DNA of 64,000 bases, taken from positions 1,681 to 65,680 of the forward strand of contig JBAZUL010000006.1 in the NCBI GenBank assembly GCA_041661405.1. The letters are read 5' to 3'. This document shows, piece by piece, positions 1 to 59,761 of the stretch (the first letter of the stretch is position 1; each line of letters begins with the position of its first letter). The DNA is from Patescibacteria group bacterium. GTDB lineage: Bacteria > Patescibacteriota > Patescibacteriia > Patescibacteriales > JBAZCA01. A program made the position numbers and the translations under genes. Under the pieces are notes generated by a model. The model ran no database searches, was not told the DNA's origin, and saw only the letters and a program-made list of their open reading frames with translations.

Positions 1-3000
1 CCACACCTTGCGTAGGGCCGGATTGCCCGGGAAATTGCGAGCCGCCGTGCGCCTACGGGTTAACCTGCTGTCCCGGGGATTATTGCGCTGAAAGTTGCGG
101 AACTCCCCCGCCAGACGGTTCATTTCTTATAAACCGGACAATTCCGGGGAACGATGATGCTAATGTCATAAGAAATATCGTTATCAGGGCTTACTTTAAC
201 AAGCAGATTGACAACTCTACCAGCCAGACCGCGTTGGAAAATAATTTTAAGGTTGAAGATCTGGGCCAGGTCGCGAAAAACGGGGAATTAATCGCGAAAA
301 ATTATCCGCCGAAAATTATCGCCATGGAAGCAGAAGCCGCGAGCGACATCTCAGGAACCATAGCCACTTCTTCGGCCTGGCAAGAAATAAATTTTCGGCC
401 GCTCGCCGAATGCGGCGATGAAGATGATACGCCCAATTGTCTTCCCGGAAGCCGGCGGATCCAGGTAACTATAAACGGCGCCAGCGGAATTTTTTCAATC
501 GGCCGCCAGTCGCTTTCCTGCGCCGGGACGAGTTGCCGGTTTATTTTTACGACCGGAGAGTTAATTGATACTGAAGCGCCGACGTCAGGAATCATCCCGG
601 CTCAGATGTGCCGCGACGACGGCACCTTAAAGCCGGACGCTAATACGGTCGGCGGCTGGGGGCGGGATGATATTGCCATTGCCAAGCTGGAATTTTATTC
701 CCAAAAATCCGGCGGCCCGGAAAATCTCTCCCATCTTGAACCCGGCATTGGGCAAAAATATCAATACCTTGACTGGAAATATGATACTGCCGCCATGAAC
801 ATCGGCGACAACTACACTTTTAAAGTAAGAGCGGAAGATTTGGCCGCTTCGTCATCGGTAGCGAGTTTTGAAACGTCTATCAAACCCGGACATTGCTGTA
901 ACGGGAAAAAGGATGCTGATGAGGAAGACGTTGATTGCGGCGGTGATGATTGTTTAGCCTGCGTCGGACAGGTTTGTAACGTTCCGAAAACGCCTAACCA
1001 GTGCGCGTACAACGATAAGAATAATTGCCAGGATAATTTATGCGCTAGCTGGTTTTGCCCCTGCGCGACCGACGATTGTTTATGCAACGTAAAACCGATC
1101 ATTAAAGCCGTAACTCCGGAAGGAGGGTTCTGCAACGGTGACATTAACAGGTTTTGCCGGAGCAACGCGGATTGCATTGGCTCGGGCGACGGCACATGCA
1201 ACACCACTACCCCGAACGGGGCAATCGGCAATTTTATTACGATTCATGGAAACAATTTTGGGGCTCTAATTCCCGGGAGCGTTTATTTTTCCGGCGGATC
1301 AGGAGGATGGATTAAAGCAAAACTGGCAAACGACGGAACTAACGGCAATCCGCTCTGCGGAAGCGATGTCTGGAAGGACACGCAGGTCGTTGTTATTGTT
1401 CCGGCCGGCGCCCGACCGGGTCCGATTAAAATTGAAGCCTCGGGAAAAGAAGAATATCCCGATCTGACCAATGACGCTTATGGCCCTAACCTGGACGATT
1501 TTTTAGTAAATACAATTTCCCGGCCGGGAATCTGCAAACTGGATCCTGATCACGGGATAATGAACGGTCAAATCGGGTATTACGGCATAAAGATGGACGC
1601 CGGTTCAGCTTTTTTCGGTAATTTGATAAGCAATGTTGCCGGCCTGGAATCCCAGTTCAACGAAAAAATCGGCAACGTCAAGGTGCCGAACATAAGTCCC
1701 GGCCTTACTTCAAGTTTTGTAATTAAAAGCAACGTCAACAGTAATTTTCTTGATTTCACCAAAGACCAGGAACCGTATTTGGGGCCGCTTATTGAATCGT
1801 TTGATCCGCAAACCGGGACTTCAACCCAATACGTTACGATTTTGGGCCGCGGTTTTGGCAACTCGCGGGGAGAAAGCCGGGTATTTTTCGGGAATGAGAA
1901 CGGTAAAGAAGCCGGCTATAATTTTCCCAAAGTTTGCGCCTCGAGCGTCTGGACCGATAATCAGGTGATTGTAAAAGTCCCCGATCAAATCGCTGATGGA
2001 CTTTATTTACTAACCATGAAAATCGGAACTGTGGTTATAAATACATCTGAGCTGGCAACGCCAAAATTCAGGGTTGACAGTTCCGAACCGCTTAAGCCGA
2101 GCCTTTGTAAAATTCAGCCGGTCATGGGGCCGGTTGGCCAGCCGGTAAGTTTTTGGGGCGAATATTTCGGCGAGAAAGACGCAAACAGCAAGATAAAATT
2201 TTATCTGAATAAGTACCAGTCCGGTTCCTCAATCGGATTTTGGGGAACAGAAGACGCCCCTGATGGCATAGATCCTGACATAGCGACAACAACGGTTCCG
2301 GCTGGCGCCATAAGCGGACCGGTAAGGATTGTTAAGAATACGCCGGAACTGGCCGGAAACGGTTTGAATTTCAGGGTCGGAGAATGCTCCGAATCCGCGG
2401 AATGCGGAAGCGAAGCGGTATGCTGCCCTTCCGGCTCGGAGCGCCAGGGCCGCTGTATGGAAGGCGATAGCATTGAAGAAGCTTGCTACGACGTTTTCAG
2501 GTCCTGCGTTTATGAATGGGATTTTTCAACCGGAGCCAAAGTAGGCGACCCTTGTGATAAGGATAAAGACAAGGCCAAATGCCAGCCGGACCAGAACGTT
2601 TGCGGCAATGATTTGATATGCTACGTCGACGAAGAGAATCCCGAGCTGGATTGCACCTGCCAGTTGTCCTGCGATTTAAAACCCGGCGACGATCCCGTGG
2701 AAAACCAGGGGTGTCAGGCTGATGACAACAAGTGTAAAGACGAGCTTGGCGAGGATTATGTTTGCGATCCGAACAAAGGCTGTACCTGCCAGCCGACTTA
2801 CACTGAATCCTGTTCGGGTTATGATATAGAGCAGTGCGCCTATAATTATTGTTCGGGCCCGAAAAAACCGGGACAATGTAGTGTTAACGTTAAGCCTAAA
2901 GAAGGAAATAAATGCAACAATAAATATTGCAAAGATCTTTGCGGAGGCAAGTCCTGCGAGTATAACGAATCCCTGGATAAATGCGCGGATAAAACCGCGA

Positions 3001-6000
3001 TTTGCGGCTTATCCCACGAAGATACGATTCACGGAACTGACGGCAAAGATTATCCGGTTAATGAATATTGCGCCGCGTATAACGGAAAATCCCGCTGGCA
3101 GGTGAAAAATTTTGAGAATTGCAATCTGCTGGGCAATTCCTGGCGTAACGCCGGCAATAGCATTTGCGCCGATATCAGCTCTGAATGTGGGGGAGTCTGC
3201 GAAGTCGGGTTAAGTTGTGTCGGGGAAAACGGCAAAGACAATAACGGTGACGAGACTCCTGACGAGCCGTGGACCGGCATTTGCGGAGTTGACCGGTCGG
3301 TTTGCGGTTCGGATTATGAATGCAGAAACGGAACCTGTCAGCAGAAAGTTGAAGGCAGTTGCGAGTGTTGTTGCCAGAAAAGCGAGAACAAATTCGATCC
3401 GGCCGGAAACTTTAAATATAATCCCCAGTGTTGCGCGCCCCTAAAATGCGGAAGCGAGTGCGGAGAGAGCGTTGGCAAGCCGGATAAAGTCTGCAAAAAA
3501 TCCGACGGCACGCTAACAAAGAAAAAATGCGACACAGACCCGGATTGCGATTCCGCGGTCGGGGAAACTTGCGTTGAAAATTTGTTGGCAAAGGATTTCG
3601 GGCTTTGCTCCGCCTGCCGGATTGACAGCGATAATAACGGTGAAATTTCGCCCGAAGAACAGAACAAATCCGATGAAGCCTGTAATTGTCCCGGATCAAC
3701 CGGGAAATACTGCGATGCCGAGACTGACGCGAACGCTGACGGAAAGCTGGACAGCCAGGACGGAGTCTGCCGCGAATGTGGAGAATTAAGTTATTATCCC
3801 GCCGAGTGCACGGAGCATGATGCGTCCTGCTGTGTTGACGGCAAGGTTGGCAATGTCTGCCGGGGGATAACGCCCGGCGGAGGGACGGTTAAGGTTGATT
3901 CGGGAAAGGAAAAACTGTCTTATTGCGGCTATTATAAATGCGGAACCAGTATAGACCAATACCAATGCGACAGCGATAATCCAAGCGCCGCGCTTATTGA
4001 TCCGGACAATTATCCGTATGATAAACCAAATTGCAACGGCGAATGCGGATCTCCGCCCGGAGGCTCGTGCTATAACAAGAAAAAGGAACTTTGTTCGCTT
4101 AATTGCTGGATGGAAAATGTTTATAAATGTTTTGGTGAATCGGGGTGCGAAGACATGAATACCGATCCCGACCTGCCGCCAGCCTGTAATGCCGGAGACG
4201 GATCCTGCCTTTGCTGTTGCGACCCGAGTAAAACCGGAACAGATTCCTCTGATCTTAAAAATTACGACGCCTGCCAGGAATTGGATAACAAGAAATTAAA
4301 ATGCGAACCAGATAAAGAGCCTTGCACCTCTGAAAAAAGAGGGCTCTGTTGCGGTTGCGAAGCTGATACGGATTGTATCCGGCCGGACGAGAATGTGGCG
4401 GATCTTGTCGGTTGCGGATTTGACGCCTGTTGCCGGGCCCGGCCGGAGGTAGAAGATGGAAGTGAAATGCCTAAGAACGGCCAAAAAGACGCCTGCCGGA
4501 ACGCGCGGATCAGCGCGAAATTTACCGAGCGGATGGATATCCAAAGTTTTCCGAGCAGTATAATCGTAGCCGGCGAATATAACGGCAAATGCCCGGACGG
4601 AACCGTTTATCTCGCGTTCGGCGGCGAAGAACCCGGATTTTTTAAACGGATGATTGCGAGAATTTCCGGACTGGTAAAAAAAATATTGCATTTTAATTCA
4701 AAAGAAGCCATTGCCCTAGCTCCGGCATCGGATAAGAATTACTGCGCGGTTAAGGGAAGCGTCTCCGGTTATCAGACCGCCGGAAAGAAAACCGAAATAA
4801 TTTTTTCCGTAAGCAAACTTTTAGATCCGGGCCGGCAATATTATGTTATTATTAAAGGCGATGAAAAGCTGGACAGCCAATCCGGAGTATTCAGTTTCTG
4901 GAAAATCGGCATGAACGGCAAAGGCTATAACGACCCTTTTGACGATCTTGACGACGGCTGGAATGAACTGGAATCAGTCACTTTCAACGGCAAGACTTAT
5001 ACAAATTCCCATGTCTGGACTTTTAAAACCATGGACAGCAAGTCGGAAAATGAAGGCGTTTGCACGGTAAAAGACGTTACTATTGACCCGGATTCATATT
5101 TATATAAAACAAATATTGACGACCTGGCGGAAAACGACGCCGACCCGGCTGACCGGACTTTTGACACGGCCTATGATATTGATAAAGTTTTTCTTTCCAA
5201 AGCCTTGTCAAAAGACGGCCAGGTTTTAGTACCGGTTAAAGGTTATAGCTGGAACTGGAACTGGCTGATTGATAATCCCCGGGTAGCGAATATTTCTTCA
5301 GCTCCGGATCATATTTTTTCCAACAGTACCCCGGAGAGCGACCGCCAGCTCATTCGGGCTAACGATAAAATAACTGACGGGGAAACTTTCGCCAAAGCCG
5401 CGGTGAACTTTGACGATAAAAATACGGTCGGGCAAAAATCAGGTTCAGTCTCCGGCAAAGCCAATATTTGGGTTTTTATCTGCGATAACCCTTGGCCGGC
5501 GATTAAAAACGGTCTCTGGGCGCCGTGGATTGATAAGGGGGCGGAAGAGTTTTGCAATGCCGGAAAGACCGGCGCGGGCGCTTCGTGCCAGAATACCAAT
5601 TACGAACTCTATTACTGTCGCGACTCAGGCGCGGAAGGAACAGCCGATGATTTGCCGGTTATTAACGCGGACTCAATATTCCGGCGCGACCCGGACACGA
5701 AAATTCTTAAAGAAGTTTATTATTTAAGAGGCCAGCTGCCGGCCGGCGGGTATGATTTGTTTGGACTCAGCGGCACGACTGATTCGGCCGGTGAAAAGGT
5801 CGCCCTCCATTGGTCGCGCCAGGCTTATGTCGGCGGTTACAAAGTATATTACGGTATTAATTCCGGCGATTATATTTTTAATAAGACTCTTGACGCCATA
5901 GAGAGCGGAGATCCGGCTGATAAGCAAGTTATATGCACCGCTGCCGGGTGCGATTATGTGGTTTCCGCCCTGACTAATGGTCAGACTTATTACTTTGCCG

Positions 6001-6656
6001 TTACTTCTTATAGCAAGGAAACTTCTGCCGAGAGCGCTTACTCAAGCGAGATAAGCGCGAAGGCCGAGGATAAGGTTGGGCCGGGTAATGTTAAGGACAG
6101 CGAAATTAAAACGACATTGTCCAGCAATCAGGTGAAATTGGAATATACTCTGGCGACCGACGCGGTAAGCTCCGAAGTGTTTTATAAGGCGGTGGCGGAC
6201 AAGGATAGTTGCAACGGAGCAATCGTTTTCGGCGGTTCGGTTAAAAGCACGCAAAAGGACGGTAAAGGAACGGCAACGGTTAAGTCTTTAACTAACGGCA
6301 GCCGCTACTGTTTCGGCGTCGTCGCTTATGACTCTTCAATAAATCCGAGTGCCACAACGACTCTTACCGCTGTCCCTTTTTCAAACCTGAGCAATCTCAA
6401 GGCTGAGTCAGCCGAGACCGGAAAAGCGCGGTTAAGCTGGGGCGCGGCCAAAGGAATCGCCGAGTATGACGTTTATCAAAAGAAAGATGGTGACGCGGAC
6501 TACGCGAGAGTCAGAGAGGATCTTCCTTCCGATTATACCTATTACAATCTTGACAGCCTTGAGAACGAAAAGAAATATTATTTTAAAGTAAGCCCGAAGA
6601 ATATTGACGGAGTTGATAGCGCCTATTTGAATGAGGTAAATATAGTTATAAAATAA
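1..6656 (+). CDS. Giant cysteine-rich cell-surface protein, 5' end outside window (IPT/TIG-like repeats, Cys-rich core, Ig-like region, C-terminal FN3-like repeats)
   Basis: The frame is open from nt 3 (TPCVGPDCPGNCEPPCAYGLTCCPGDYC...) straight into tracked ORF 234..6656, so TTG-234 is not the start. Four units show a GxxxTIxGxxFG ... V.VP pattern (IPT/TIG-like). A core of about 700 aa is packed with CxxC/CC motifs. Three C-terminal units of about 90 aa end in YYFAV / YCFGVVAYD / YYFKV (FN3-like). Confidence 0.8.
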   Translation, partial: TPCVGPDCPGNCEPPCAYGLTCCPGDYCAESCGTPPPDGSFLINRTIPGNDDANVIRNIVIRAYFNKQIDNSTSQTALENNFKVEDLGQVAKNGELIAKNYPPKIIAMEAEAASDISGTIATSSAWQEINFRPLAECGDEDDTPNCLPGSRRIQVTINGASGIFSIGRQSLSCAGTSCRFIFTTGELIDTEAPTSGIIPAQMCRDDGTLKPDANTVGGWGRDDIAIAKLEFYSQKSGGPENLSHLEPGIGQKYQYLDWKYDTAAMNIGDNYTFKVRAEDLAASSSVASFETSIKPGHCCNGKKDADEEDVDCGGDDCLACVGQVCNVPKTPNQCAYNDKNNCQDNLCASWFCPCATDDCLCNVKPIIKAVTPEGGFCNGDINRFCRSNADCIGSGDGTCNTTTPNGAIGNFITIHGNNFGALIPGSVYFSGGSGGWIKAKLANDGTNGNPLCGSDVWKDTQVVVIVPAGARPGPIKIEASGKEEYPDLTNDAYGPNLDDFLVNTISRPGICKLDPDHGIMNGQIGYYGIKMDAGSAFFGNLISNVAGLESQFNEKIGNVKVPNISPGLTSSFVIKSNVNSNFLDFTKDQEPYLGPLIESFDPQTGTSTQYVTILGRGFGNSRGESRVFFGNENGKEAGYNFPKVCASSVWTDNQVIVKVPDQIADGLYLLTMKIGTVVINTSELATPKFRVDSSEPLKPSLCKIQPVMGPVGQPVSFWGEYFGEKDANSKIKFYLNKYQSGSSIGFWGTEDAPDGIDPDIATTTVPAGAISGPVRIVKNTPELAGNGLNFRVGECSESAECGSEAVCCPSGSERQGRCMEGDSIEEACYDVFRSCVYEWDFSTGAKVGDPCDKDKDKAKCQPDQNVCGNDLICYVDEENPELDCTCQLSCDLKPGDDPVENQGCQADDNKCKDELGEDYVCDPNKGCTCQPTYTESCSGYDIEQCAYNYCSGPKKPGQCSVNVKPKEGNKCNNKYCKDLCGGKSCEYNESLDKCADKTAICGLSHEDTIHGTDGKDYPVNEYCAAYNGKSRWQVKNFENCNLLGNSWRNAGNSICADISSECGGVCEVGLSCVGENGKDNNGDETPDEPWTGICGVDRSVCGSDYECRNGTCQQKVEGSCECCCQKSENKFDPAGNFKYNPQCCAPLKCGSECGESVGKPDKVCKKSDGTLTKKKCDTDPDCDSAVGETCVENLLAKDFGLCSACRIDSDNNGEISPEEQNKSDEACNCPGSTGKYCDAETDANADGKLDSQDGVCRECGELSYYPAECTEHDASCCVDGKVGNVCRGITPGGGTVKVDSGKEKLSYCGYYKCGTSIDQYQCDSDNPSAALIDPDNYPYDKPNCNGECGSPPGGSCYNKKKELCSLNCWMENVYKCFGESGCEDMNTDPDLPPACNAGDGSCLCCCDPSKTGTDSSDLKNYDACQELDNKKLKCEPDKEPCTSEKRGLCCGCEADTDCIRPDENVADLVGCGFDACCRARPEVEDGSEMPKNGQKDACRNARISAKFTERMDIQSFPSSIIVAGEYNGKCPDGTVYLAFGGEEPGFFKRMIARISGLVKKILHFNSKEAIALAPASDKNYCAVKGSVSGYQTAGKKTEIIFSVSKLLDPGRQYYVIIKGDEKLDSQSGVFSFWKIGMNGKGYNDPFDDLDDGWNELESVTFNGKTYTNSHVWTFKTMDSKSENEGVCTVKDVTIDPDSYLYKTNIDDLAENDADPADRTFDTAYDIDKVFLSKALSKDGQVLVPVKGYSWNWNWLIDNPRVANISSAPDHIFSNSTPESDRQLIRANDKITDGETFAKAAVNFDDKNTVGQKSGSVSGKANIWVFICDNPWPAIKNGLWAPWIDKGAEEFCNAGKTGAGASCQNTNYELYYCRDSGAEGTADDLPVINADSIFRRDPDTKILKEVYYLRGQLPAGGYDLFGLSGTTDSAGEKVALHWSRQAYVGGYKVYYGINSGDYIFNKTLDAIESGDPADKQVICTAAGCDYVVSALTNGQTYYFAVTSYSKETSAESAYSSEISAKAEDKVGPGNVKDSEIKTTLSSNQVKLEYTLATDAVSSEVFYKAVADKDSCNGAIVFGGSVKSTQKDGKGTATVKSLTNGSRYCFGVVAYDSSINPSATTTLTAVPFSNLSNLKAESAETGKARLSWGAAKGIAEYDVYQKKDGDADYARVREDLPSDYTYYNLDSLENEKKYYFKVSPKNIDGVDSAYLNEVNIVIK

Positions 6657-19128: not shown

Positions 19129-19605
19129 ATGAAATGCCCTATCTGTTATTACAAAGATACTAAAGTGGTTGATTCAAGGGTAGCATCGGACGGGTTTTCC
19201 ATAAGAAGGCGGCGGGAATGTTTAAAATGCGGCTTCCGTTTTTCCACCTATGAAGAGCTGGAAATCCTGGAACTTACGATTATTAAGCGGGACGGCCGGA
19301 AAGAAGCCTACCAGCGGGAAAAACTGGAAAGAGGCCTTAAAAAAGCTTTGGAAAAACGCCCCATAACCAAAGACAATTTCAAAAAACTCGTTAACCTTAT
19401 AGAGCGGGATTTGCAGAAACTCAGGAAAAGCGAAATCACTTCCAACCAGATCGGCCTTTTTATAATGAAGCACCTGAAAAAAATGGACAAGGTCGCTTAT
19501 ATCCGCTTCGCGAGCGTTTACCAGTCGTTTAAGGACGTGGAAGAATTTTCAGAAGAACTTAGTAAGCTGGTTTCAAAGCGGAAAGAGAATAATCCAGGAA
19601 AATAA
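19129..19605 (+). CDS. nrdR: Transcriptional repressor NrdR
   Basis: MKCPICYYKDTKVVDSR zinc ribbon plus an ATP-cone. A purine-rich SD (gggagggg) lies upstream. Confidence 0.95.
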   Translation: MKCPICYYKDTKVVDSRVASDGFSIRRRRECLKCGFRFSTYEELEILELTIIKRDGRKEAYQREKLERGLKKALEKRPITKDNFKKLVNLIERDLQKLRKSEITSNQIGLFIMKHLKKMDKVAYIRFASVYQSFKDVEEFSEELSKLVSKRKENNPGK

Positions 19606-19688: not shown

Positions 19689-21842
19689 ATGCAACCTTCC
19701 AAAGAAATAAAAAACAGCATAACAAAGATTATAAAGCGCTCCGGAGAAATCGCGCCATTTCTCCCGGAAAAAATCGCTGAGGCTATTTTCAAAGCGACCG
19801 AAGCCGTTGGCCAGCCTGACCGGGCGCTCGCGGAAAAATTAACCGCTGAAGTGATTGCCGCCGTAGCCGCGAAGTTTCACGAAAGATCCATTCCGGCGGT
19901 TGAAGAAATCCAGGACATGGTTGAAGAAGTTCTTATCGCCAACCGGCAGATTAAAGCCGCGAAATCCTATATCCTCTACCGGGATCAAAGGGCTCGGCTC
20001 CGGGACATGCGGTCGCTCGTTGATTACGCTACGCTCGTTGAATCCTACATCAATAACTCGGACTGGCGGGTTAAGGAAAATTCCAACATGAGCTACAGCC
20101 TCCAGGGTTTAAATAACCACATCGCTTCGGACATTTCTTCCAACTACTGGCTTAATAAAATTTACACGGCCAATATCCGCGAAGCCCATAAAGACGGCGA
20201 TTTGCATCTGCATGACCTGCAGATCATCGCCCCTTACTGTGCCGGCTGGGATTTAAGGGATTTGCTCACGCGCGGCTTTGGCGGAGTTTCGGGAAAAATT
20301 GAATCCGGGCCGGCCAAGCATTTTCGCACGGCGCTCGGGCAGGTGATAAATTTCTTCTATACCGTGCAGGGCGAAGTGGCCGGGGCCATGGCCTTTTCCA
20401 ACTTTGATACCTATCTCGCGCCTTTTATCCGCCATGACAATATGACCAAAAAAGAAGTCCGGCAAAGCCTGCAGGAATTTTTATTCAACATCAACGTCCC
20501 GACCCGGGTCGGATTCCAGACGCCTTTTACCAACATCACCCTGGATTTGACGGTAACCGGCGCGTTAAAGGATGAGCATGTAATCATCGGCGGAAAGCCC
20601 CAGATTGAAACTTACAAGGAATTCCAGAAAGAAATGGACATGTTCAACGAAATTTTCGCCGAGCTGATGATGGAGGGCGACGCTAAGGGGCGGGTTTTTA
20701 CCTTTCCCATTCCGACTTACAATATTACTAAAGATTTTAACTGGGATTCGCCGGTAACCGAAAAAGTTTTTGACATGACCGCTAAATACGGCATCCCCTA
20801 TTTTTCCAACTTTATTAATTCTGATATGAGTCCGGACGACGCCCGGTCAATGTGCTGCCGCTTGCGGCTTGATAACCGGGAACTGAGAAAGCGCGGCGGC
20901 GGACTTTTTGGCGCCAACCCTTTAACCGGCTCCATCGGCGTCGTAACTATCAACCTGCCGCGGATCGGCTACCTCGCGAAAACTGAAGGCGAATTCTTTG
21001 ACCGTTTGTCCGACCTGATGCAAATCGCCCGGGAAAGCCTTGAAATAAAAAGGAAAGTTTTAGAAGACTTAACCGACGGCGGGCTTTATCCTTACGCCAG
21101 GCATTATCTTGATAATATTAAAGCGCGTTTCGGCGGTTACTGGAATAACCATTTTTCAACCATCGGCATTATCGGCATGAATGAAGCCCTCCTGAATTTT
21201 AATCCGCTCCGCACCGGCATTTCCACCCCGGCTGGCCGGATCTTTGCCGAAAAGACATTGTCTTTTATCCGGGAGAAAATGATGGATTACCAAAATTCCA
21301 CCAACCACCTATACAATCTTGAAGCGACGCCGGCCGAGGGAACGACAAGGAGGCTTGCTAACCTTGATAAGAAAAAATACGCCGATATCATCGTGGCTAA
21401 CGATAAAGAGGTTAAGGCTGGCGTTGCCGCTCCGTTCTATTCCAACTCCACCCAATTGCCGGTGAGCCATACTGACGATATGTTTGAAGCGCTGGATTTG
21501 CAGGACGGACTGCAAACCCGGTACACCGGCGGAACCGTATTCCACGGCTTTGTCGGCGAGGCTCTGCCTTCGGCTGAATCAGTAAAAAATCTTGTCCGGA
21601 AAATCGCTTACAACTACAAACTGCCTTACTTTACGATCACCCCGACTTTTTCCATTTGCCCGAAGCACGGCTATCTTGCCGGCGAACACCATTACTGCCC
21701 GAAATGCGACGAGGAAAACGGAACCGGCGGGATATTAACAGCGGAAAAAAAGATTGAAGAAAAGCCGTTAGGGCGGGAAAATCCGGAAAACGCGGCCAGC
21801 CAGGGAAATTTGGAAAGGGATTTAATAACTTTATTAGCATAA
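19689..21842 (+). CDS. nrdD: Anaerobic (class III) ribonucleoside-triphosphate reductase NrdD, large fragment lacking the glycyl-radical motif
   Basis: N-terminal ATP-cone and a class III RNR body. C-terminal ICPKHGY...YCPKC zinc site. The ORF ends in a low-complexity tail and tandem stops (taataa). Confidence 0.9.
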   Translation: MQPSKEIKNSITKIIKRSGEIAPFLPEKIAEAIFKATEAVGQPDRALAEKLTAEVIAAVAAKFHERSIPAVEEIQDMVEEVLIANRQIKAAKSYILYRDQRARLRDMRSLVDYATLVESYINNSDWRVKENSNMSYSLQGLNNHIASDISSNYWLNKIYTANIREAHKDGDLHLHDLQIIAPYCAGWDLRDLLTRGFGGVSGKIESGPAKHFRTALGQVINFFYTVQGEVAGAMAFSNFDTYLAPFIRHDNMTKKEVRQSLQEFLFNINVPTRVGFQTPFTNITLDLTVTGALKDEHVIIGGKPQIETYKEFQKEMDMFNEIFAELMMEGDAKGRVFTFPIPTYNITKDFNWDSPVTEKVFDMTAKYGIPYFSNFINSDMSPDDARSMCCRLRLDNRELRKRGGGLFGANPLTGSIGVVTINLPRIGYLAKTEGEFFDRLSDLMQIARESLEIKRKVLEDLTDGGLYPYARHYLDNIKARFGGYWNNHFSTIGIIGMNEALLNFNPLRTGISTPAGRIFAEKTLSFIREKMMDYQNSTNHLYNLEATPAEGTTRRLANLDKKKYADIIVANDKEVKAGVAAPFYSNSTQLPVSHTDDMFEALDLQDGLQTRYTGGTVFHGFVGEALPSAESVKNLVRKIAYNYKLPYFTITPTFSICPKHGYLAGEHHYCPKCDEENGTGGILTAEKKIEEKPLGRENPENAASQGNLERDLITLLA

Positions 21843-21853
21843 TAAACAAAACT

Positions 21854-22000
21854 ATGAGTCCAGTTGAAACAAAAAGACAACCTTGCGAAGTTTACAGCCG
21901 GGTTTGCGGTTATCTCCGGCCGGTAAGCCAGTGGAATGATTCAAAGCAGGCCGAGTTCGTTAACCGGAAGATGTATAAAACCGAAAATAGCGATAAATAA
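21854..22000 (+). CDS. Stand-alone NrdD glycyl-radical domain (48 codons, below the ORF-track cutoff)
   Basis: Translates to MSPVETKRQPCEVYSRVCGYLRPVSQWNDSKQAEFVNRKMYKTENSDK. RVCGY...W..(G/S)K..EF is the class III RNR glycyl-radical signature. Its TAA overlaps the nrdG ATG (TAATG). Confidence 0.75.
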   Translation: MSPVETKRQPCEVYSRVCGYLRPVSQWNDSKQAEFVNRKMYKTENSDK

Positions 22001-22773
22001 TGAAAATCGGCGGTTTGCAAAAATTCAGCCTTCTTGATTATCCGGGAAAAATTTCCGCCATCATATTCACGAAGGGTTGCAATTTCCGCTGTCATTATTG
22101 CTATAATCCCATGCTTGTTGAGCCTAAAGGCGGACGTGTCCTGACCCGACGGCAAGGCAAGGTAGTATATTCTTCGCCCGATCCCGAGAAATCGGGAGAG
22201 GGCGAAGAGCAGGAAGGTCATCCCCTAAAAGAGGGTGATCTTTTTGTTTTTCTAAAAAAACGGATCAAAAAATTGGACGCTGTCGTAATAACCGGTGGCG
22301 AGCCGACAATCCAGCCGGATTTGCCGGAGTTTCTCGCGAAAATCAAAGCTTTGGGCTACCTTATTAAACTGGACACAAATGGGTCTAACCCGGAAATGCT
22401 TAAGAAAATACTGGATAAAAAATTAGCGGATTACATTGCCATGGATTTAAAAACCGCTTTGCCGGCTTACGAAAAAGCCTGCGGAATTAAATTCAATTTG
22501 GAAAAATTGGAAAAAAGTATTAAAATAATTAAGGAAAGCTCTCTGCCGCATGAATGGCGGACGACGCTTGTTCCGGGAATCGTGGAGGCGGCTGATATTA
22601 CGGCCTTGGGGAAATTGATTAAAGGCGAATCCGTCTGGTATTTGCAGGAGTTTAAAAGCCAGACCCCTTTGGTTAACGCGGAATTCCAGGGAAAGAACTC
22701 GCATACCGGGAAAGAAATGGAAAAGATGCGAAAGATCGCCATGAAATATGTTAAGAAGTGCGAAATAAGATAA
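22000..22773 (+). CDS. nrdG: Anaerobic RNR activating radical-SAM protein NrdG
   Basis: CNFRCHYCYN (CX3CX2C), GGEPT, and operon position after nrdD. Confidence 0.9.
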   Translation: MKIGGLQKFSLLDYPGKISAIIFTKGCNFRCHYCYNPMLVEPKGGRVLTRRQGKVVYSSPDPEKSGEGEEQEGHPLKEGDLFVFLKKRIKKLDAVVITGGEPTIQPDLPEFLAKIKALGYLIKLDTNGSNPEMLKKILDKKLADYIAMDLKTALPAYEKACGIKFNLEKLEKSIKIIKESSLPHEWRTTLVPGIVEAADITALGKLIKGESVWYLQEFKSQTPLVNAEFQGKNSHTGKEMEKMRKIAMKYVKKCEIR

Positions 22774-32118: not shown

Positions 32119-34272
32119 ATGAATAACGACATAACATTATTCGGCATAACCACGTTCCGCAATAAGAACCGCGTTTTCGGCATCAAGCTTGATGACCGGC
32201 GGCGGCATATGTATGTTATCGGGAAGACTGGAATGGGAAAATCCACCCTTTTGGAAAACATGATTGTCGGCGACATCCGGGCCGGCCGGGGAGTGGCGGT
32301 CGTTGATCCGCACGGCGACCTGGCGGAAAAGGTTATTGACTTTATTCCGAGCGATCGGATTAATGATGTCATTTATTTTAATCCATCCGACATGGAATAC
32401 CCGATTGCTTTCAATATCCTTGAACGGGTGGAGCCGCATTTAAGGCATCTTGTCGCTTCGGGACTCATCGGAGTTTTTCAGAAACTCTGGGCCGATTCCT
32501 GGGGGCCGCGGCTGGAATATATATTAAGGAATACTATTCTGGCGGTTTTGGACTATCCCGGGGCGACCCTTTTAGCCGTCACCCGGATGCTTTCTGATAA
32601 AGATTTTCGGAAAAAGGTAGTGGATAAAACCCTGGATCCGGTAGTGAAAACTTTTTGGACCAAGGAGTTCGCCGGTTACGCCGACAAGTTCGCGTCAGAA
32701 GCGGTTTCGCCGATCCAGAACAAAGTCGGCCAATTTTTATCCAGTTCGCTCATAAGAAATATTATCGGCCAGGTCAAGTCTTCCATTGATGTCCGAAAAG
32801 TCATGGACGAAGGAAAAATACTGATCATGAACCTTTCCAAAGGCCGTATTGGCGAAGATAATTCGGCTTTGCTCGGCAGTATGATGATTACAAAAATCCA
32901 GCTGGCGGCCATGAGCCGGGTTGACGTTCCGGAAACCGAACGCCATGATTTTTACCTTTACGTTGACGAATTCCAGAATTTCGCCACTGACAGCTTTGCC
33001 AATATTTTATCCGAAGCCCGGAAGTACCACCTTAATCTCATCATGGGCCACCAATACGTTGAACAGTTAGGCGACGTTGTCAAAGCCGCGGTTTTCGGCA
33101 ACGTCGGGACTTTGGTCGTTTTCCGCATCGGCGCCACTGACGCCGAAGAGTTGGTTAAGGAATTTACCCCGACTTTTACCGAAGAAGATCTTGTTAACCT
33201 GCCAAAATACGAAATGTATTTAAAATTGATGATTGACGGAGTGTCTTCAGATCCTTTTTCCGCCCGGGGCCTGCCGCCGATCGGCGAAGAGGTAAAAACC
33301 GGTAGCGCCGGAAAAGTAATCAGGGTTTCCCGTGAGCGCTATGCCAGGAAAAAAGACGAAGTTGAGGAGAAAATAATGAAATGGCACGCCATTGACGAGC
33401 CCATAAATAAGGCGGAGAGGGCCGGAGCCAGAAACGCTCCGTCTGGGTTCGGAAAGAATTCGTCCGCCGGGAAAAATATATCCGCTGAACCCGCCAGTCG
33501 GCGGAACGCCGGGAAAGGAAAAGAGGGCGGGAAAAAATCCCCGCCTCTCCCGAGGGGCGGGAACGCGGGAGGAGAATCATCTTCCACCTTCCTTGGCGCT
33601 GAAACCGTTAAAAATATGAAAATTGCGGACGATAAGCCCCGTCCGCCGTCCGCCGCGTTTCGCCAGCCAACGGACATGACGGATAAGCCGGAGAAAAGGC
33701 CGCTCGTTATTTCTTCCCACGAAGTTTTAGAAAATGACAAAACTGTCCAGGATAAGCCCCGTCCCGAACCGCTCGGGATTTCACCGGACAAGCCGAAAGG
33801 GGGCGAGGCGTATAAGTATGACGCGGTTTGCTCCCGCTGTTCCAGCGCGGCCAAAATTTCATTCCCGCCGGACGGCATCCGGCCGGTTTTTTGCAAAAAC
33901 TGTCTCGTGGAAATAAAAAAGGAAAAAATAAGTGAGATGGAGGAACGGAAAAAAGAGAAGCGGAAAGAACTGGAAAAACTTGAAAAAAGAGAAGCGGAAA
34001 AAAGAGAAGCATTGTCCGGCCGACGAACGATAACCGATAATAGCGGTACTGCCGGCAGATCAGCTTTTGGGGAAAGAAATGTATCGGGCGGAACTGAGGC
34101 CGAAACCGGAAAAAAAAGCCTCTTTACCAATAAAGAATTTGACAAAGACTGGAGAGAAATTTCCTTAAGCGAACTTGCCAATTTAGTTCCGGCAAGATTC
34201 GGGAATCATAAAAAGGAAAACGGCAAAGGGGCGAAAAAAATGATCCCCGGGGAGTCTGTTAAGATCGGATAA
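32119..34272 (+). CDS. VirD4/TraD-like (type IV coupling protein-like) P-loop ATPase with C-terminal zinc ribbon
   Basis: Walker A GKTGMGKST and Walker B FYLYVDEFQNF. K/E/P-rich linker with DKPRP repeats. C-terminal CSRC-x18-CKNC. Confidence 0.7.
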   Translation: MNNDITLFGITTFRNKNRVFGIKLDDRRRHMYVIGKTGMGKSTLLENMIVGDIRAGRGVAVVDPHGDLAEKVIDFIPSDRINDVIYFNPSDMEYPIAFNILERVEPHLRHLVASGLIGVFQKLWADSWGPRLEYILRNTILAVLDYPGATLLAVTRMLSDKDFRKKVVDKTLDPVVKTFWTKEFAGYADKFASEAVSPIQNKVGQFLSSSLIRNIIGQVKSSIDVRKVMDEGKILIMNLSKGRIGEDNSALLGSMMITKIQLAAMSRVDVPETERHDFYLYVDEFQNFATDSFANILSEARKYHLNLIMGHQYVEQLGDVVKAAVFGNVGTLVVFRIGATDAEELVKEFTPTFTEEDLVNLPKYEMYLKLMIDGVSSDPFSARGLPPIGEEVKTGSAGKVIRVSRERYARKKDEVEEKIMKWHAIDEPINKAERAGARNAPSGFGKNSSAGKNISAEPASRRNAGKGKEGGKKSPPLPRGGNAGGESSSTFLGAETVKNMKIADDKPRPPSAAFRQPTDMTDKPEKRPLVISSHEVLENDKTVQDKPRPEPLGISPDKPKGGEAYKYDAVCSRCSSAAKISFPPDGIRPVFCKNCLVEIKKEKISEMEERKKEKRKELEKLEKREAEKREALSGRRTITDNSGTAGRSAFGERNVSGGTEAETGKKSLFTNKEFDKDWREISLSELANLVPARFGNHKKENGKGAKKMIPGESVKIG

Positions 34273-49539: not shown

Positions 49540-51840
49540 ATGAAGATGAAATTTTTCATCGGTTTTTTAATGGTGGCAAGCATCTTCGCGATGCCTGCCG
49601 GTTTTAGCGTTTTTGGCATCCGCGCCGGGAAAGGAAAAGACGTGTTTTTAAAACCGGCAATCGCGGCCGCGGCCGGCGGCAATACGCAACCGGGTAAGGC
49701 CGAATATGAAGACCATGAAATAATCGTTAAATTTAGAAGCGCCGAAAAGCCGGTAAAAGTCTTTTTGGCCCCGGACGAAAAATTGAAAGACGCGATAGAG
49801 GAATATGAAAAAAAACCCGGCGTGGAATACGCCGAATTGAATTATAAATACCGGGCTTCCATCATCCCTTCGGATACTTATTACGGCGAGCAGTGGTATT
49901 TAAAAAAAATAAAAGCTCAGGAGGCCTGGGACCTTAAGCGGGAAAGCCCGAACGTCGTCATCGCGATCATTGATTCCGGAGTCCAGATCAGCCATCCGGA
50001 TTTAAAGGAAAATATTTGGGCCAATAGCGGTGAAATTCCCGCCAACGGGATTGACGATGACCGCGACGGTTATATTGATGATATTAATGGCTGGGATTTT
50101 GTCAATAACGAGGCTGATCCTTCGCCAAAATTTCAGGAAGGCTTTACGGAAGGCGGGATTAACCACGGGACCATTGTCGCGGGAATCGCGGCCGCTTCCG
50201 GAAATAACGCCACGGGCATTGCCGGAGTTACCTGGAGAGCGAAAATAATGCCTTTAAAAGTTTTAGGGGACGCCGGCGAAGGGTCAACCCTGAATGTTGT
50301 CCGCGCTATAGATTACGCGATAAAGAAAGGCGCTAATATCCTTAATTTCAGTTTTGTCGGTTTCGGCTACAGCGAAGCTTTGAATGAAGCTATTGGCCGG
50401 GCGCACGCGGCCGGCCTTATTATCGTGGCGGCGGCCGGTAACGAGTCTGACGATGGAGAAGGGTATTTTTTAGACGACACTCCCATGTATCCGGTCTGCC
50501 ACGACGGTCCGGCCGGTAAAAATTGGATAATCGGCGTGGCGGCGGTTGACGCGATAGACCAAAAATCAAAATTTTCCAGCTACGGATTTAAGTGCATTGA
50601 CATAGCCGCGCCGGGCGAGAGCGTTTTCGGAACAGTGGTTTACGCTCCGGAAAAATCAATCGGCGAAAAGAGCTTTAATAAATATTATGACGGCTATTGG
50701 TCCGGAACATCAGTAGCCGCGCCTCAAGTTTCCGGCGCTATTTCTTTACTGCTTGAAGCCGATTACGAGTTGGGGAGAGACAAAATAATCGCGCTACTGC
50801 TTGATAACAGCGATAACATCAGCCGGGTCAATCCGGCGCACCTCGGCCAGCTTGGCCGGGGGCGGCTGAATGTCCTGAATTCAATGCGAATGGCGCTTTC
50901 GGGAGTGAGCGCTTTTAAAGGCGGAATCATGAGCGTCCCTTTTTCCGGCGCCGAGGCCAGCCTGAAAATTTCCGATAAGGACGGAAAAATAGAAGCTGAT
51001 TTTCCGGTTTTTGATCCGCTTTTCCGCGGCGGGGCGAATGTTACCGGCGGAGACATTGACGGCGACGGAAAAGATGAAATAATCGTTGGCCCTGGATCGG
51101 GCGGCGGACCGCATGTCCGGATTTTTTCCGCTGACGGAAAAGTCAGAGGACAGTTTTTCGCCTATGACAGCCGGTTTAGGGGCGGAGTGAATGTCGCGGC
51201 CGGAGACATTGACGCTGACGGAAAAGATGAAATAATCGTTGGCGCAGGACCGGGCGGCGGACCGCATGTCCGGATTTTTTCCGCTGACGGAAAAGTCAGA
51301 GGACAGTTTTTCGCCTATGACAGCCGGTTTAGGGGCGGAGTGAATGTCGCGGCCGGAGACGTTGACGGCGACGGAAAAGATGAAATAATCGTTGGCGCAG
51401 GACCGGGCGGCGGACCGCATGTCCGGATTTTTTCCGCTGACGGAAAAGTCAGGGGACAGTTTTTCGCCTATGACAGCCGGTTTAGGGGCGGAGTAAGAGT
51501 GGCGGCGGGGAACGTTTATAATTCAGCCCGCAAATTCGGCGACCAGATTATAACCGCTCCCGGTTCCGGACTTATCGCGGAGATTAAAATTTTTGATAAT
51601 AAAGCCGGTCTTTTAAGCCGTTTTAACGCTTTTAACAGTTATTTTCGCGGCGGAATAAGCGTTTCGGCCGGCGACCTGGACGCCGACGGCCGGAGCGAAA
51701 TAATCGCCGGCGCCGGACCGGGCGGCGCGCCCCACATCCGTTCTTTTGATTCGGATGGCAATCTTTTCGGCTCCTATTACGCGCTGGCGGCTGATTTTAA
51801 CAAAGGGGTGAACGCGGGATACGTTAAGATCGGGAAATGA
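49540..51840 (+). CDS. Secreted subtilisin-like (S8) protease with C-terminal FG-GAP/VCBS-like beta-propeller repeats
   Basis: Triad contexts IDSGV, HGTIVAGI and GTSVAAPQVSG. The 51-aa repeats read GDIDGDGKDEIIVGxGxGGGPHVRIFSADGK...FRGGVNVAAGD. Confidence 0.85.
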   Translation: MKMKFFIGFLMVASIFAMPAGFSVFGIRAGKGKDVFLKPAIAAAAGGNTQPGKAEYEDHEIIVKFRSAEKPVKVFLAPDEKLKDAIEEYEKKPGVEYAELNYKYRASIIPSDTYYGEQWYLKKIKAQEAWDLKRESPNVVIAIIDSGVQISHPDLKENIWANSGEIPANGIDDDRDGYIDDINGWDFVNNEADPSPKFQEGFTEGGINHGTIVAGIAAASGNNATGIAGVTWRAKIMPLKVLGDAGEGSTLNVVRAIDYAIKKGANILNFSFVGFGYSEALNEAIGRAHAAGLIIVAAAGNESDDGEGYFLDDTPMYPVCHDGPAGKNWIIGVAAVDAIDQKSKFSSYGFKCIDIAAPGESVFGTVVYAPEKSIGEKSFNKYYDGYWSGTSVAAPQVSGAISLLLEADYELGRDKIIALLLDNSDNISRVNPAHLGQLGRGRLNVLNSMRMALSGVSAFKGGIMSVPFSGAEASLKISDKDGKIEADFPVFDPLFRGGANVTGGDIDGDGKDEIIVGPGSGGGPHVRIFSADGKVRGQFFAYDSRFRGGVNVAAGDIDADGKDEIIVGAGPGGGPHVRIFSADGKVRGQFFAYDSRFRGGVNVAAGDVDGDGKDEIIVGAGPGGGPHVRIFSADGKVRGQFFAYDSRFRGGVRVAAGNVYNSARKFGDQIITAPGSGLIAEIKIFDNKAGLLSRFNAFNSYFRGGISVSAGDLDADGRSEIIAGAGPGGAPHIRSFDSDGNLFGSYYALAADFNKGVNAGYVKIGK
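51049..51507 (+). repeat. Three near-identical 153-bp tandem repeats inside the S8 protease gene
   Basis: Units start at 51049, 51202 and 51355 (ggagacattgac...). They differ at only a handful of positions. Confidence 0.9.
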
Positions 51841-55560: not shown

Positions 55561-55855
55561 TTTAAATCCGGCCGGTTTACAAAATAAAGGCGGGGCTTGA
55601 TGAGCCGTTGAAGGGAGCGAGTCTTTGATAGTATTATTGCCGGGTTTCAGTAAAAGCGCTATAATAAAACAAAAAAACTTAATACAGCTTAATTAATTCA
55701 TAGCCCTAAGGAGGTATGAAAAACAATTTTTTAAAGCGTTGCGGGAACATGCCCCGCAAGGCAAAGCATGCCATTAAAATCAATCTGTCCATTCCCGGAA
55801 AAGTTTTACTGACCCTCGCTATCGCGGGGTTTTTTGTTTTTGGGGGAGTTTTTGG
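55538..55855 (+). repeat. Segmental duplication, copy 1 (junction repeat + promoter + SD + first ~47 codons of lipase-like gene)
   Basis: Aligns to 59424..59761 with about 8 substitutions and one 20-bp indel. Contains TTGCCG-17-TATAAT (55637..55665) and the aaggagg SD. Confidence 0.9.
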
Positions 55856-59446: not shown

Positions 59447-59761
59447 TTTAAATCCGGCCGGTTTACAAAATAAAGGCGGGGCTTAATGAGCCGTTGAGCG
59501 GAGCGAGTCTTTGATAGTATTATTGCCGAGTTTCAGTAAAAGCGGTATAATAAAACAAAAAAACTTAATACAGCTTAATTAACCCGCCTGCCGGCCGGCA
59601 GGTTCATAACCCTAAGGAGGTATGAAAATTAATTTTTTAAAGCGTTGCGGGAACATGCCCCGCAAGGCAAAGCATGCCATTAAAATCAATCTGTCCATTC
59701 CCGGAAAAGTTTTACTGACCCTCGCTATCGCGGGGTTTTTTGTTTTCGGGGGAGTTTTTGG
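59424..59761 (+). repeat. Segmental duplication, copy 2
   Basis: See copy 1. Promoter TTGCCG-17-TATAAT at 59523..59551. Confidence 0.9.
59583..59602. repeat. 20-bp GC-rich insertion containing a perfect 16-bp palindrome CCTGCCGGCCGGCAGG
   Basis: Present here but absent at the orthologous point of copy 1 (between 55692 and 55693): cagcttaattaa|ttcata. Confidence 0.9.

Follow-up and report, generated by a model that had tools for sequence, protein, structure and literature searches.

A probable two-subunit anaerobic ribonucleotide reductase with its glycyl-radical loop encoded as a separate 48-residue peptide

Results

The anaerobic (class III) ribonucleotide reductase (RNR) encoded in the 64,000-nucleotide stretch of Patescibacteria DNA analysed here (the window) is, judging from its sequence, very probably a genuine two-polypeptide enzyme with two obligate subunits: a 717-residue core without the glycyl-radical motif, and a 48-residue peptide that carries it. 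The two ORFs are separately terminated and separately initiated, and this layout is conserved across many species and has arisen repeatedly. Jointly they span the NrdD family profiles exactly, and the break leaves the zinc ribbon on one side and the glycine loop on the other: as in a naturally split RNR, two adjacent, conserved ORFs together make up one single-chain homologue.

The core subunit and its tail

The core ORF, nrdD (19689..21842, + strand), comprises an ATP-cone (residues 13-102), an alpha/beta barrel, a zinc ribbon and a tail, as delineated by Pfam, NCBIfam and AF2. Its residues 130-677 match positions 1-531 of the 562 in the Pfam NRDD profile (598.6 bits, cut-off 26.2), and NCBIfam NF006126 is matched over positions 2-651 of 684 (1046.5 bits, cut-off 548); both family models, above their thresholds, place the protein among the class III RNRs. 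A Patescibacteria MAG encodes P0121, whose sequence is 100% identical. The active-site cysteines lie in an SCCR-type motif of the T. maritima-like subclass (S387-M-C-C-R391, 20847..20861, +), which occupies invariant columns of our alignment A3 (100 fused plus 44 tail-bearing homologues) and is of the type described for tmNrdD (PMC4493059). The zinc ribbon that is expected ahead of the glycine loop in NrdD is present at residues 657-673 and stays on the core; read directly from the sequence, it is C657-P-K-H660 ... C670-P-K-C673 (21657..21707, +), with C657, C670 and C673 invariant in alignment A3.

Beyond the ribbon, the core continues into a 44-aa C-terminal tail (21708..21839, +), made of a variable low-complexity linker and a conserved ERDLITLLA (21813-21839), such that the chain ends in ...NLERDLITLLA. 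Among 120 homologues of the core the tail measures 19-65 aa, and most tails end in E-R-[DE]-[LIV]-I-x-[AS]-[LIM]-[AI] or a near variant, a motif that is kept right up to the stop codon. The radical glycine (RVxGY) is absent from the C-terminus of the core chain, which stops at tandem stop codons first.

The small ORF and its neighbours

These stops, TAA TAA (21840-21845), together with the remainder of an 11-nt spacer, fill positions 21840..21853 (+), after which ATG 21854 opens an ORF in another frame, +2 (equivalent to -1) relative to the core. Its 48-aa product (21854..22000, +) begins MSPVETKRQPCEVYSRVCG19YLRPVSQWNDSKQAEF... and contains the glycyl-radical loop RVCG19Y, in which G19 (codon 21908-21910) is the radical glycine. 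Residues 8-41 match positions 531-562 of 562 in Pfam NRDD (E 1.8e-10), and NF006126 is covered at positions 649-683 of 684, giving the same join as Pfam; the product is a small homologue of a glycyl radical enzyme's radical domain, and it holds the only glycine motif within the 64-kb window. Its frame is open upstream to 21758, which gives it an 82-nt overlap with the last part of the core ORF. No Shine-Dalgarno site precedes the window's small ORF, which is weak evidence against separate translation since only ~7 of 40 genes here have one. A tryptic peptide to be expected from the window's small protein is VCGYLRPVSQWNDSK.

The cognate activase expected for a class III RNR follows directly: nrdG (22000..22773, +), a radical-SAM protein matching TIGR02495 NrdG2 (E 4.8e-60), whose ATG (22000) has one base in common with the TAA of the small ORF (21998-22000) in a TAATG overlap. 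Upstream lies nrdR (19129..19605, +; Pfam Zn_ribbon_NrdR and ATP-cone), a transcriptional repressor of RNR genes, which opens a conserved cluster nrdR-nrdD-small ORF-nrdG and holds the same place in L001-L003 and L200-L203. The initial annotation had described the 717-aa ORF with its CPKH...CPKC site, low-complexity tail and tandem stops, the glycyl-radical signature behind ATG 21854, the small-ORF stop overlapping the nrdG ATG and the frame open back to 21758, and all of this is borne out. Its description of a radical domain on an ORF of its own needs narrowing, however: the glycine-loop half of the canonical C-terminal domain is encoded separately, whereas the zinc ribbon is kept on the large ORF.

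Conservation, spread and repeated origin

An independently assembled ENA contig (L203, 4,254 bp) has a junction identical to that of the window, from which it differs by 6 mismatches, all inside nrdD at positions 1500-1750 of L203. The glycine motif is missing in all of the best 120 core homologues (70-100% identity), and stand-alone homologues of the small ORF, 39-84 aa long, form at least 124 clusters. The initial annotation had proposed looking for the same split in the nrdD loci of related genomes, and it is there: of 80 loci, each from a related GTDB species, 45 have the split arrangement in the order core, small ORF, nrdG, another 33 have the fused one, and 2 loci are truncated. Glycine loops were typed by tblastn and a pattern wider than R[VIL].GY, which on its own misses the RVCGF, RVVGW or RPVGF variants of 27 loci. 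Every cellular locus examined has exactly one glycine motif, and none has an extra copy of the peptide gene. In fused relatives the sequence across the join reads CPxC-x3-(C/T)EVYSRVVGY. An nrdG lies directly downstream in 75 of the 80 loci; four of the five exceptions sit on contigs that end within ~360 nt of nrdD, and the fifth (L047) shows no nrdG match in the 3 kb downstream of nrdD.

Strong purifying selection acts on the small ORF, its dN/dS being 0.04-0.11 at saturated dS (0.09 in the window clade). Its MSP... start is conserved across relatives and an ATG start is called for 118 of 120 small proteins; gene callers leave the ORF uncalled in L202 and L203. On the tree, split lineages are interspersed with fused ones – fused L081 and split L059 are sisters (bootstrap 100, 86% identity), fused L032 falls with split Elusimicrobia (bootstrap 84), and fused L012/L013 fall with the window clade (bootstrap 80) – which means that fission happened several times, with at least 4-5 well-supported independent events, all at the same structural site. 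Once split, the gene has stayed so through whole clades, such as the best 120 core homologues and the Desulfuromonadales, and a separate radical peptide is the fixed state in large sections of four groups: Patescibacteria, DPANN archaea, Desulfuromonadales and Elusimicrobia.

Apparent docking features and structure models

From their sequences, several lineages appear to have acquired docking devices of their own, which look as if they made up for the break. Heptad helices, a predicted pair in Elusimicrobia, occur on both new termini, with a core ending in ...EEIEKQIALLEEQLYSK at its stop codon and a partner beginning MTTQERNNIENKISELKTKLENTKG...; the Desulfuromonadales chain is broken within the second zinc knuckle (CPH... 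then stop, with M-x-x-K-C on the partner), which shifts a zinc ligand onto the peptide; and the window clade has the conserved ERDLIxxLA C-terminus on the core.

A first AF2 run on the concatenated core and peptide gave a poor model (pLDDT 55.9), as its alignment (A1) was shallow and partly misaligned. With alignment A3, a second run on the concatenated chain folded the core (pLDDT 74.6, pTM 0.71; mostly pLDDT 80-97 within the core), with the ten-stranded alpha/beta barrel of class III RNRs, and the top 36 matches of this core in a Foldseek search of the PDB are all class III RNRs (target-normalised TM-scores ~0.6-0.74). A helix is predicted at residues 708-716 of the core tail with low confidence; tail and peptide have pLDDT 22-31 in this run, and neither the peptide nor ERDLITLLA is placed on the core. 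A PDB search with an 86-aa synthetic C-terminal query returned noise only.

Radical modules in viruses

The radical module stands alone in 30 of 31 phage contigs (L089-L119) and, as a 144-aa protein (AJP62049), in the apparently complete archaeal virus ANMV-1; neither a core nor an activase was found near the viral radical modules of the phage contigs or ANMV-1. Among the annotated phage genomes of INPHARED there are two matches only, a fused nrdD (L205) and the ANMV-1 module. The latter had been reported as an RNR.

Discussion

Could the two ORFs be an accident of sequencing, or be rejoined by the cell? The initial annotation had set a frameshift or assembly error against a genuinely split enzyme, and a single-base indel could in principle give the same picture in one MAG; the uncalled small ORFs of L202 and L203 might be read in the same way. 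Yet the junction is identical in an independent assembly, dozens of species share the architecture with different spacers and frames, the dN/dS of the small ORF is far below 1, and the core is undamaged, its catalytic residues being invariant, such that an artefact or a recently inactivated pseudogene is effectively refuted, with a likelihood that we regard as negligible. Recoding, whereby a programmed -1 frameshift, bypass or stop readthrough would join both ORFs into a canonical NrdD, deserves a closer look, as the window has the 82-nt frame overlap and, at 21803-21809, a G GGA AAT heptamer that conforms to the slippery X XXY YYZ pattern and lies in the right frame, a -1 shift there yielding a fused protein. 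Against it, spacers in the relatives range from 0 to 194 nt and are unconserved, and all three frames occur among 48 split loci (24 at +2, 14 at 0 and 10 at +1). In fifteen of the 48, among them L001 and L009-L011, the window's nearest relatives, the frames do not overlap and no single shift can fuse the ORFs, and the 14 in-frame loci have 1-8 stop codons between the ORFs. L001, the closest relative (core 91% identical), has an 85-nt spacer, a different frame offset and no such heptamer, and it is not fusable by a single frameshift because its open frames do not overlap. Nor does the RNA point to a stimulatory structure, the predicted fold of the junction (21700-21900) being nothing unusual (z = +0.75) and an Rfam search of the whole window empty. 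The tandem TAA TAA terminates the core, whose C-terminal motif is conserved up to its stop codon, and in Desulfuromonadales, Elusimicrobia, Goldbacteria and archaea the ATG of the small ORF is preceded, at 6-10 nt, by a strong Shine-Dalgarno site, GGAGG. The constant frame relation, slippery site and stimulatory structure of a programmed frameshift are thus not what these loci present, and recoding appears highly improbable. As unlikely as an artefact, in our estimation, is a self-splicing intron or (split) intein that would reconstitute a single chain, by acting on either the RNA or the protein. Introns, inteins and homing endonucleases classically reside in RNR genes, an example being the intron of phage T4 nrdD; but the short, AT-rich spacers match no Rfam family and have no stable fold, neither ORF has an intein or endonuclease domain in Pfam, and the tails (19-65 aa) and the N-terminal extension of the peptide (~10 aa) are too short for intein halves. 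What stands, therefore, is the genuinely split enzyme, with its conserved layout, its purifying selection and, in lineages that use such sites, a Shine-Dalgarno site of its own for the small ORF; the viral modules, too, show the radical module as a gene by itself.

A harder question is why the split exists, and here a neutral fission competes with any functional account, while leaving the two-subunit architecture itself untouched. The linker between zinc ribbon and glycine loop may simply tolerate a break, with the products of the adjacent, translationally coupled ORFs still assembling into the same enzyme, in which case the split would bring no benefit and would not be selected against. In every case there is one copy of the peptide gene, immediately 3' of the core, as simple fission predicts, and the interleaving over short distances, as between L059 and L081, suggests that the state switches easily. 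On the other hand, at least 4-5 well-supported independent events struck one structural site, whole clades have retained the split, docking features have apparently been acquired, and phages carry the module alone; together these points suggest more than drift, none of them being decisive, and we give neutrality somewhat short of an even chance.

How might the two-subunit enzyme work? The core lacks a glycine loop, which makes the peptide an obligate subunit, as opposed to a spare. We posit that it binds the core non-covalently, its RVCG19Y loop entering the barrel at the place that a single-chain NrdD fills with its C-terminus, and that NrdG, from the overlapping next gene, would abstract a hydrogen from G19 to form the glycyl radical, with catalysis presumably proceeding onward as in an ordinary NrdD. 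ERDLITLLA, an amphipathic motif on a flexible linker, probably tethers the peptide or NrdG. Known enzymes are in keeping with this: the radical glycine of tmNrdD lies buried, and its activation requires a movement of the C-terminal domain (PMC4493059), and a 7-mer peptide is a substrate for the activase of pyruvate formate-lyase (PFL) (PMC13450708). Perhaps a detached loop could ease the access of the activase, and also allow the replacement of 48 residues after O2 cleavage at the radical glycine, a suggestion that we offer tentatively. Taken further, and with the same reserve, the peptide might be an exchangeable protein-radical cofactor: charged by NrdG, possibly free or loosely tethered by the C-terminal motif of the core, it would plug into the barrel and be replaced after O2 cleavage without resynthesis of the 717-aa core, and phages and archaeal viruses would bring their own copy to keep or boost host dNTP synthesis. 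The free-standing phage copies make the idea of a replaceable peptide more plausible; against it stands the finding of no additional peptide gene at any cellular locus.

An obligate, separately encoded radical peptide would be an arrangement new to glycyl radical enzymes, and virus-borne radical modules a new kind of auxiliary metabolic gene. The split loci also offer a natural experiment: how does the radical domain leave the barrel to meet its activase, what is the shortest polypeptide on which an activase can act, and could O2 damage be repaired by subunit exchange? For annotation, the consequence is that the large ORF is labelled a complete RNR despite having no radical site, and that the small ORF is sometimes missed by gene callers.

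In the literature that we searched, no split NrdD and no NrdD-type spare part is described, every described glycyl radical enzyme has its radical glycine on the catalytic chain, and the only trans-acting radical proteins are GrcA/YfiD, back-ups for PFL. The single-chain NrdD/NrdG systems of phage T4 (1H79), Thermotoga maritima (4COI/4U3E) and Prevotella copri (8P23) have the same ATP-cone, barrel, SCCR-type motif, zinc ribbon and RVxGY loop, and likewise an adjacent radical-SAM activase; here, in contrast, a second chain of 48 aa with its own start codon bears the glycine loop, and a linker and a conserved C-terminal motif, both missing in fused enzymes, have been added to the core. Phage T4 Y06I is an autonomous glycyl-radical spare part for PFL, and phage-encoded versions thus exist for both enzymes, those for NrdD being L089-L119 and ANMV-1. 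Like the 48-aa peptide, E. coli GrcA/YfiD is a small homologue of a radical-bearing C-terminus that is presumed to act in trans with a barrel, albeit for a different parent enzyme family. The initial annotation had drawn this analogy, which survives for the small radical-domain homologue and fails for its role: in PFL the radical domain stays part of the enzyme and GrcA serves as a back-up, whereas this core has no glycine loop and the peptide, encoded in the operon, is obligate and no spare copy. A 2026 review knows spare-part proteins for formate lyases only (PMC13450708).

Split RNR chains do have precedents, at other break points. NrdJa/NrdJb of Pseudomonas aeruginosa, a split class II RNR attributed to Crona et al. 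2015 as cited in PMC9669993, is alike in that the catalytic chain is encoded in two adjacent genes with the C-terminal module on the second polypeptide; it differs in its class, its B12 cofactor, its break point and a second piece without a radical-generating residue. The RNR large subunit is likewise made as two polypeptides in Aeromonas phage Aeh1. There, as Friedrich et al. reportedly found in 2007, the class Ia NrdA is split by the mobE homing endonuclease and reassembles into an active enzyme. The Aeh1 split stems from an endonuclease gene inserted within the barrel, whereas the two halves described here have no mobile gene between them and part at a point that leaves the radical loop by itself.

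A class III reductase encoded in two parts

The window carries nrdR (19129-19605), nrdD (19689-21842), a 48-codon ORF (21854-22000) and nrdG (22000-22773), all on the plus strand. The 717-aa NrdD, here called the core, comprises an ATP-cone and positions 1-531 of the 562-position Pfam NRDD profile, a match that stops at aa 677, four residues past the zinc ribbon (C657-PKH...C670-PKC673); the ribbon is followed by a 44-aa tail, DEENGTGG...NLERDLITLLA, and then TAA TAA. The small ORF begins 11 nt downstream of the nrdD stop, in the +2 frame, and takes up the profile where the core leaves off (aa 8-41, positions 531-562); its radical glycine is G19, within MSPVETKRQPCEVYSRVCGY, and its own stop overlaps the nrdG ATG in the sequence TAATG. 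NCBIfam NF006126 shows the same contiguity (core, positions 2-651; small ORF, 649-683 of 684), and the layout of small ORF, nrdD end and nrdG overlap described in the initial annotation is correct. Its description of the radical domain as a separate ORF holds only for the glycine loop: the zinc ribbon is still part of the core, which leaves just half of the canonical domain detached.

A protein 100% identical to the core is encoded in a Patescibacteria MAG, and the core keeps the family's invariant residues, the SMCCR motif included. A PDB fold search with its AlphaFold2 model returned only class III RNRs among its top matches, whilst the core tail and the peptide reached pLDDT of only 22-31 and neither was placed. 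The window nrdG contains a low-complexity insertion of ~35-40 aa (EPKGGRVLTRRQGKVVYSSPDPEKSGEGEEQEGHPLKEGD) directly after the CxxxCxxC cluster motif, and its TIGR02495 match falls into two stretches; NrdG length differs between relatives (238-265 aa). Elsewhere in the window (1-64000), in which all 40 long ORFs lie on the plus strand and no tRNA genes or Rfam matches were found, are two large surface-type proteins (324-6656, 2110 aa, TIG/fn3; 49540-51840, subtilase and FG-GAP), a TrwB-like coupling ATPase (32119-34272) and two LCAT/lipase-domain proteins (55716-57977 and 59622-63503) with an identical ccctaaggaggt sequence 5' of each.

Error, recoding or a genuine split

A frameshift or assembly error had been left as an alternative to a genuinely split enzyme. 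Error is ruled out by an independently assembled ENA contig, L203, with an identical junction and six mismatches elsewhere in nrdD, together with the same split in relatives: in the nearest, L001 (core 91% and small ORF 94% identical), the spacer is 85 nt and the frame offset another, and in L002 core and small ORF are in frame with stops intervening. Among the 120 top-ranking database homologues of the core (P0121-P0240, 70-100% identity), none contains a glycine motif. Could the two frames instead be joined by recoding? The window does offer two slippery-like heptamers in the tail-coding region: at G GGA AAT (21803-21809) a -1 shift would enter the small-ORF frame and give a fused chain, and at A AAA AAG (21746-21752) it would run into a TGA at 21755-21757. 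Neither is conserved in L001, so that frameshifting at G GGA AAT would be at most a local, minor route. Across 48 split loci the offsets are +2 (24), 0 (14) and +1 (10); 1-8 stops intervene in the 14 in-frame loci; and open frames fail to overlap in 15, including L001 and L009-L011 of the window clade, making fusion by any single shift impossible there. Spacers range from 0 to 194 nt, AT-rich and unconserved, and the junction RNA has no stable fold beyond shuffled sequence (z = +0.75) and no Rfam match. Taken together, these features make a recoding site very unlikely.

No ribosome-binding site precedes the window small ORF, which is uninformative as Shine-Dalgarno sequences are rare in this genome (~7 of the 40 long ORFs, all on the plus strand); the 11-nt spacer and TAATG overlap suggest that core, peptide and activase are translated in coupled fashion. 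Lineages that use Shine-Dalgarno sequences have a strong GGAGG 6-10 nt 5' of the small ORF, e.g. ttggaggaggagcagcATG (L051) and aaaggaggtaataaATG (L029). Small-ORF dN/dS, taken over a 28-codon core, comes to 0.04 for Desulfuromonadales, 0.07 for Elusimicrobia and 0.09 for the window clade, with synonymous sites saturated. Judging from these ratios and from the invariant residues and fold of the NrdD core, core and small ORF both appear functional.

Distribution and repeated fission

Stand-alone homologues of the small ORF (39-84 aa) form at least 124 clusters, confirming its conservation elsewhere. Scanning GTDB, with each species represented by one genome, yielded 80 loci that have exactly one glycine motif each: 45 split, which bears out the genuinely split enzyme, 33 fused and 2 interrupted by contig ends. 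In 75 of them nrdG lies directly downstream; four of the other five are on contigs ending ~360 nt or less from nrdD, and L047 has no nrdG match in its 3 kb downstream. In two public contigs (L202:3663-4050 and L203:3307-3463) the small ORF was overlooked by gene callers, so the operon seems to lack a radical site, and the large ORF still bears the name of a complete ribonucleoside triphosphate reductase. No NCBIfam model exists for the small subunit.

In a tree of NrdD cores (neighbour-joining only), split and fused forms are interleaved. Split L059 pairs with fused L081 (bootstrap 100, 86% identity), fused L032 with split Elusimicrobia (84), fused L012/L013 with the window clade (80; the clade by itself, 99) and Desulfuromonadales with L068 (100). 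The split thus arose repeatedly, and break point and new termini vary by clade.

New termini

In Elusimicrobia (L035-L037) and Goldbacteria (L029), heptad-like helices occupy both new ends (core terminus ...EEIEKQIALLEEQLYSK before the stop; peptide N-terminus MTTQERNNIENKISELKTKLENTKGSNCEVY..., also given as MTTQERNNIENKISELKTKLENTKG...), with neither helix in the fused sister L032; they have the look of a natural clamp, in which a helix pair would hold a split protein together. In Desulfuromonadales (L039, L051, L054, L055, L057, L060, L062, L065, L067, L069, L073, L075-L078, L080, L082-L084 and L088) the break lies inside the second zinc knuckle, with the core ending CPxH...CPHxxxAA, the peptide beginning M-x-x-K-C-x-x-K-TEVYSRVCGFF and a strong GGAGG before the small ORFs. 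Alignment with the fused CPYC-SKE-CEVY would assign the fourth of the zinc ligands to the peptide, and the zinc site would then draw on both chains.

The window-clade core tail is a variable acidic/lysine-rich linker of 19-65 aa whose end is a motif both amphipathic and conserved, E-R-[DE]-[LIV]-I-x-[AS]-[LIM]-[AI]-COOH (window 21813-21839 and the 120 homologues). Under a strict pattern, 54 of these are ERDLIxxLA-like, 30 EKEVEQILI-like and most others similar; the motif may bind the peptide, NrdG or the barrel. Fused L046 reads ...EEIHVKELAGHRQPCEVY..., which suggests that the motif preceded fission, possibly as an ancestral-like state. Such clade-specific termini argue that core and peptide associate as separate chains.

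Viral radical modules

An IMG/VR scan with the small ORF returned 31 loci (L089-L119), mostly on incomplete viral contigs. In 30, the glycine motif lies within an ORF of 43-145 aa, with neither NrdD core nor NrdG detected within ±3.5 kb. The genes around them are of phage type, with roles in replication, tail and connector. Examples are L089:3501-3638 (near DnaB helicase, primase and a UvsX/RecA-like protein), L105:3279-3620 (adjoining a tail lysozyme protein) and L100:3492-3623 (adjoining a head-tail connector). Sixteen loci encode loop-only peptides resembling the window's, and 11 (L097, L098, L105, L107, L108, L110-L113, L118, L119) encode whole radical domains of 84-145 aa with their own four-cysteine ribbon, CHDC...KCxxC, then ...NYQPCEVYSRVVGY; L105 covers NRDD positions 511-562. 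The family extends to Moranbacteria (L020:3853-4161), where the protein sits 3' of a truncated nrdD, whereas its viral counterparts stand alone. ANMV-1 (L206, KP703175), a 38.5-kb archaeal virus genome that is apparently complete according to its authors, encodes a 144-aa protein of the whole-domain kind (KP703175.1, 25525-25959, minus strand). This protein has a zinc ribbon and a glycine loop and nothing more; its annotation and the publication give it as 'nrdD' or 'an oxygen-sensitive ribonucleotide reductase', and tblastn found neither NrdD core nor NrdG anywhere in that genome. We consider the free-standing IMG/VR genes candidate virus-encoded radical modules.

Viral nrdD is itself split in L131 and L133 (probably also L126, L128-L130 and L132) at the same site, with core terminus ...CPLCDKEIIEKYKAKECCK and peptide start MISEVDIEQKILKEHAEERQPCEVWSRVMGY. 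The 153-aa viral ORF L106:3162-3623 corresponds to the final ~150 NrdD residues, from ...PYYTNSTQLPV to zinc ribbon and glycine loop, with no upstream core detected within 3 kb; it represents either another site of breakage or a remnant.

Function and comparison with known systems

In single-chain NrdD the glycine loop enters the barrel, facing the finger loop, and the glycine is buried, so that activase access needs movement of the whole C-terminal domain (PMC4493059). Oxygen breaks the polypeptide at its radical-bearing glycine (PMC12288474), and a peptide of only seven residues can be activated by the PFL activase (PMC13450708). We propose that the 48-aa peptide would bind the core non-covalently, that NrdG would activate it at G19, and that activated peptide and core would then carry out normal catalysis. 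Detachment may be adaptive, whether by making activation easier, by allowing a cheap exchange of the damaged piece after oxygen exposure or by viral supply, or fission may be neutral and tolerated, a reading to which we give a little less than an even chance; the viral modules and the recurrent, long-kept fissions lean to function.

A full-text literature search found neither a split NrdD nor an NrdD spare part, although the former may be informally familiar to RNR database curators, and a June 2026 review knows spare-part proteins for formate lyases only (PMC13450708). The known analogues of the split NrdD are GrcA/YfiD of PFL and the split class II NrdJa/b.
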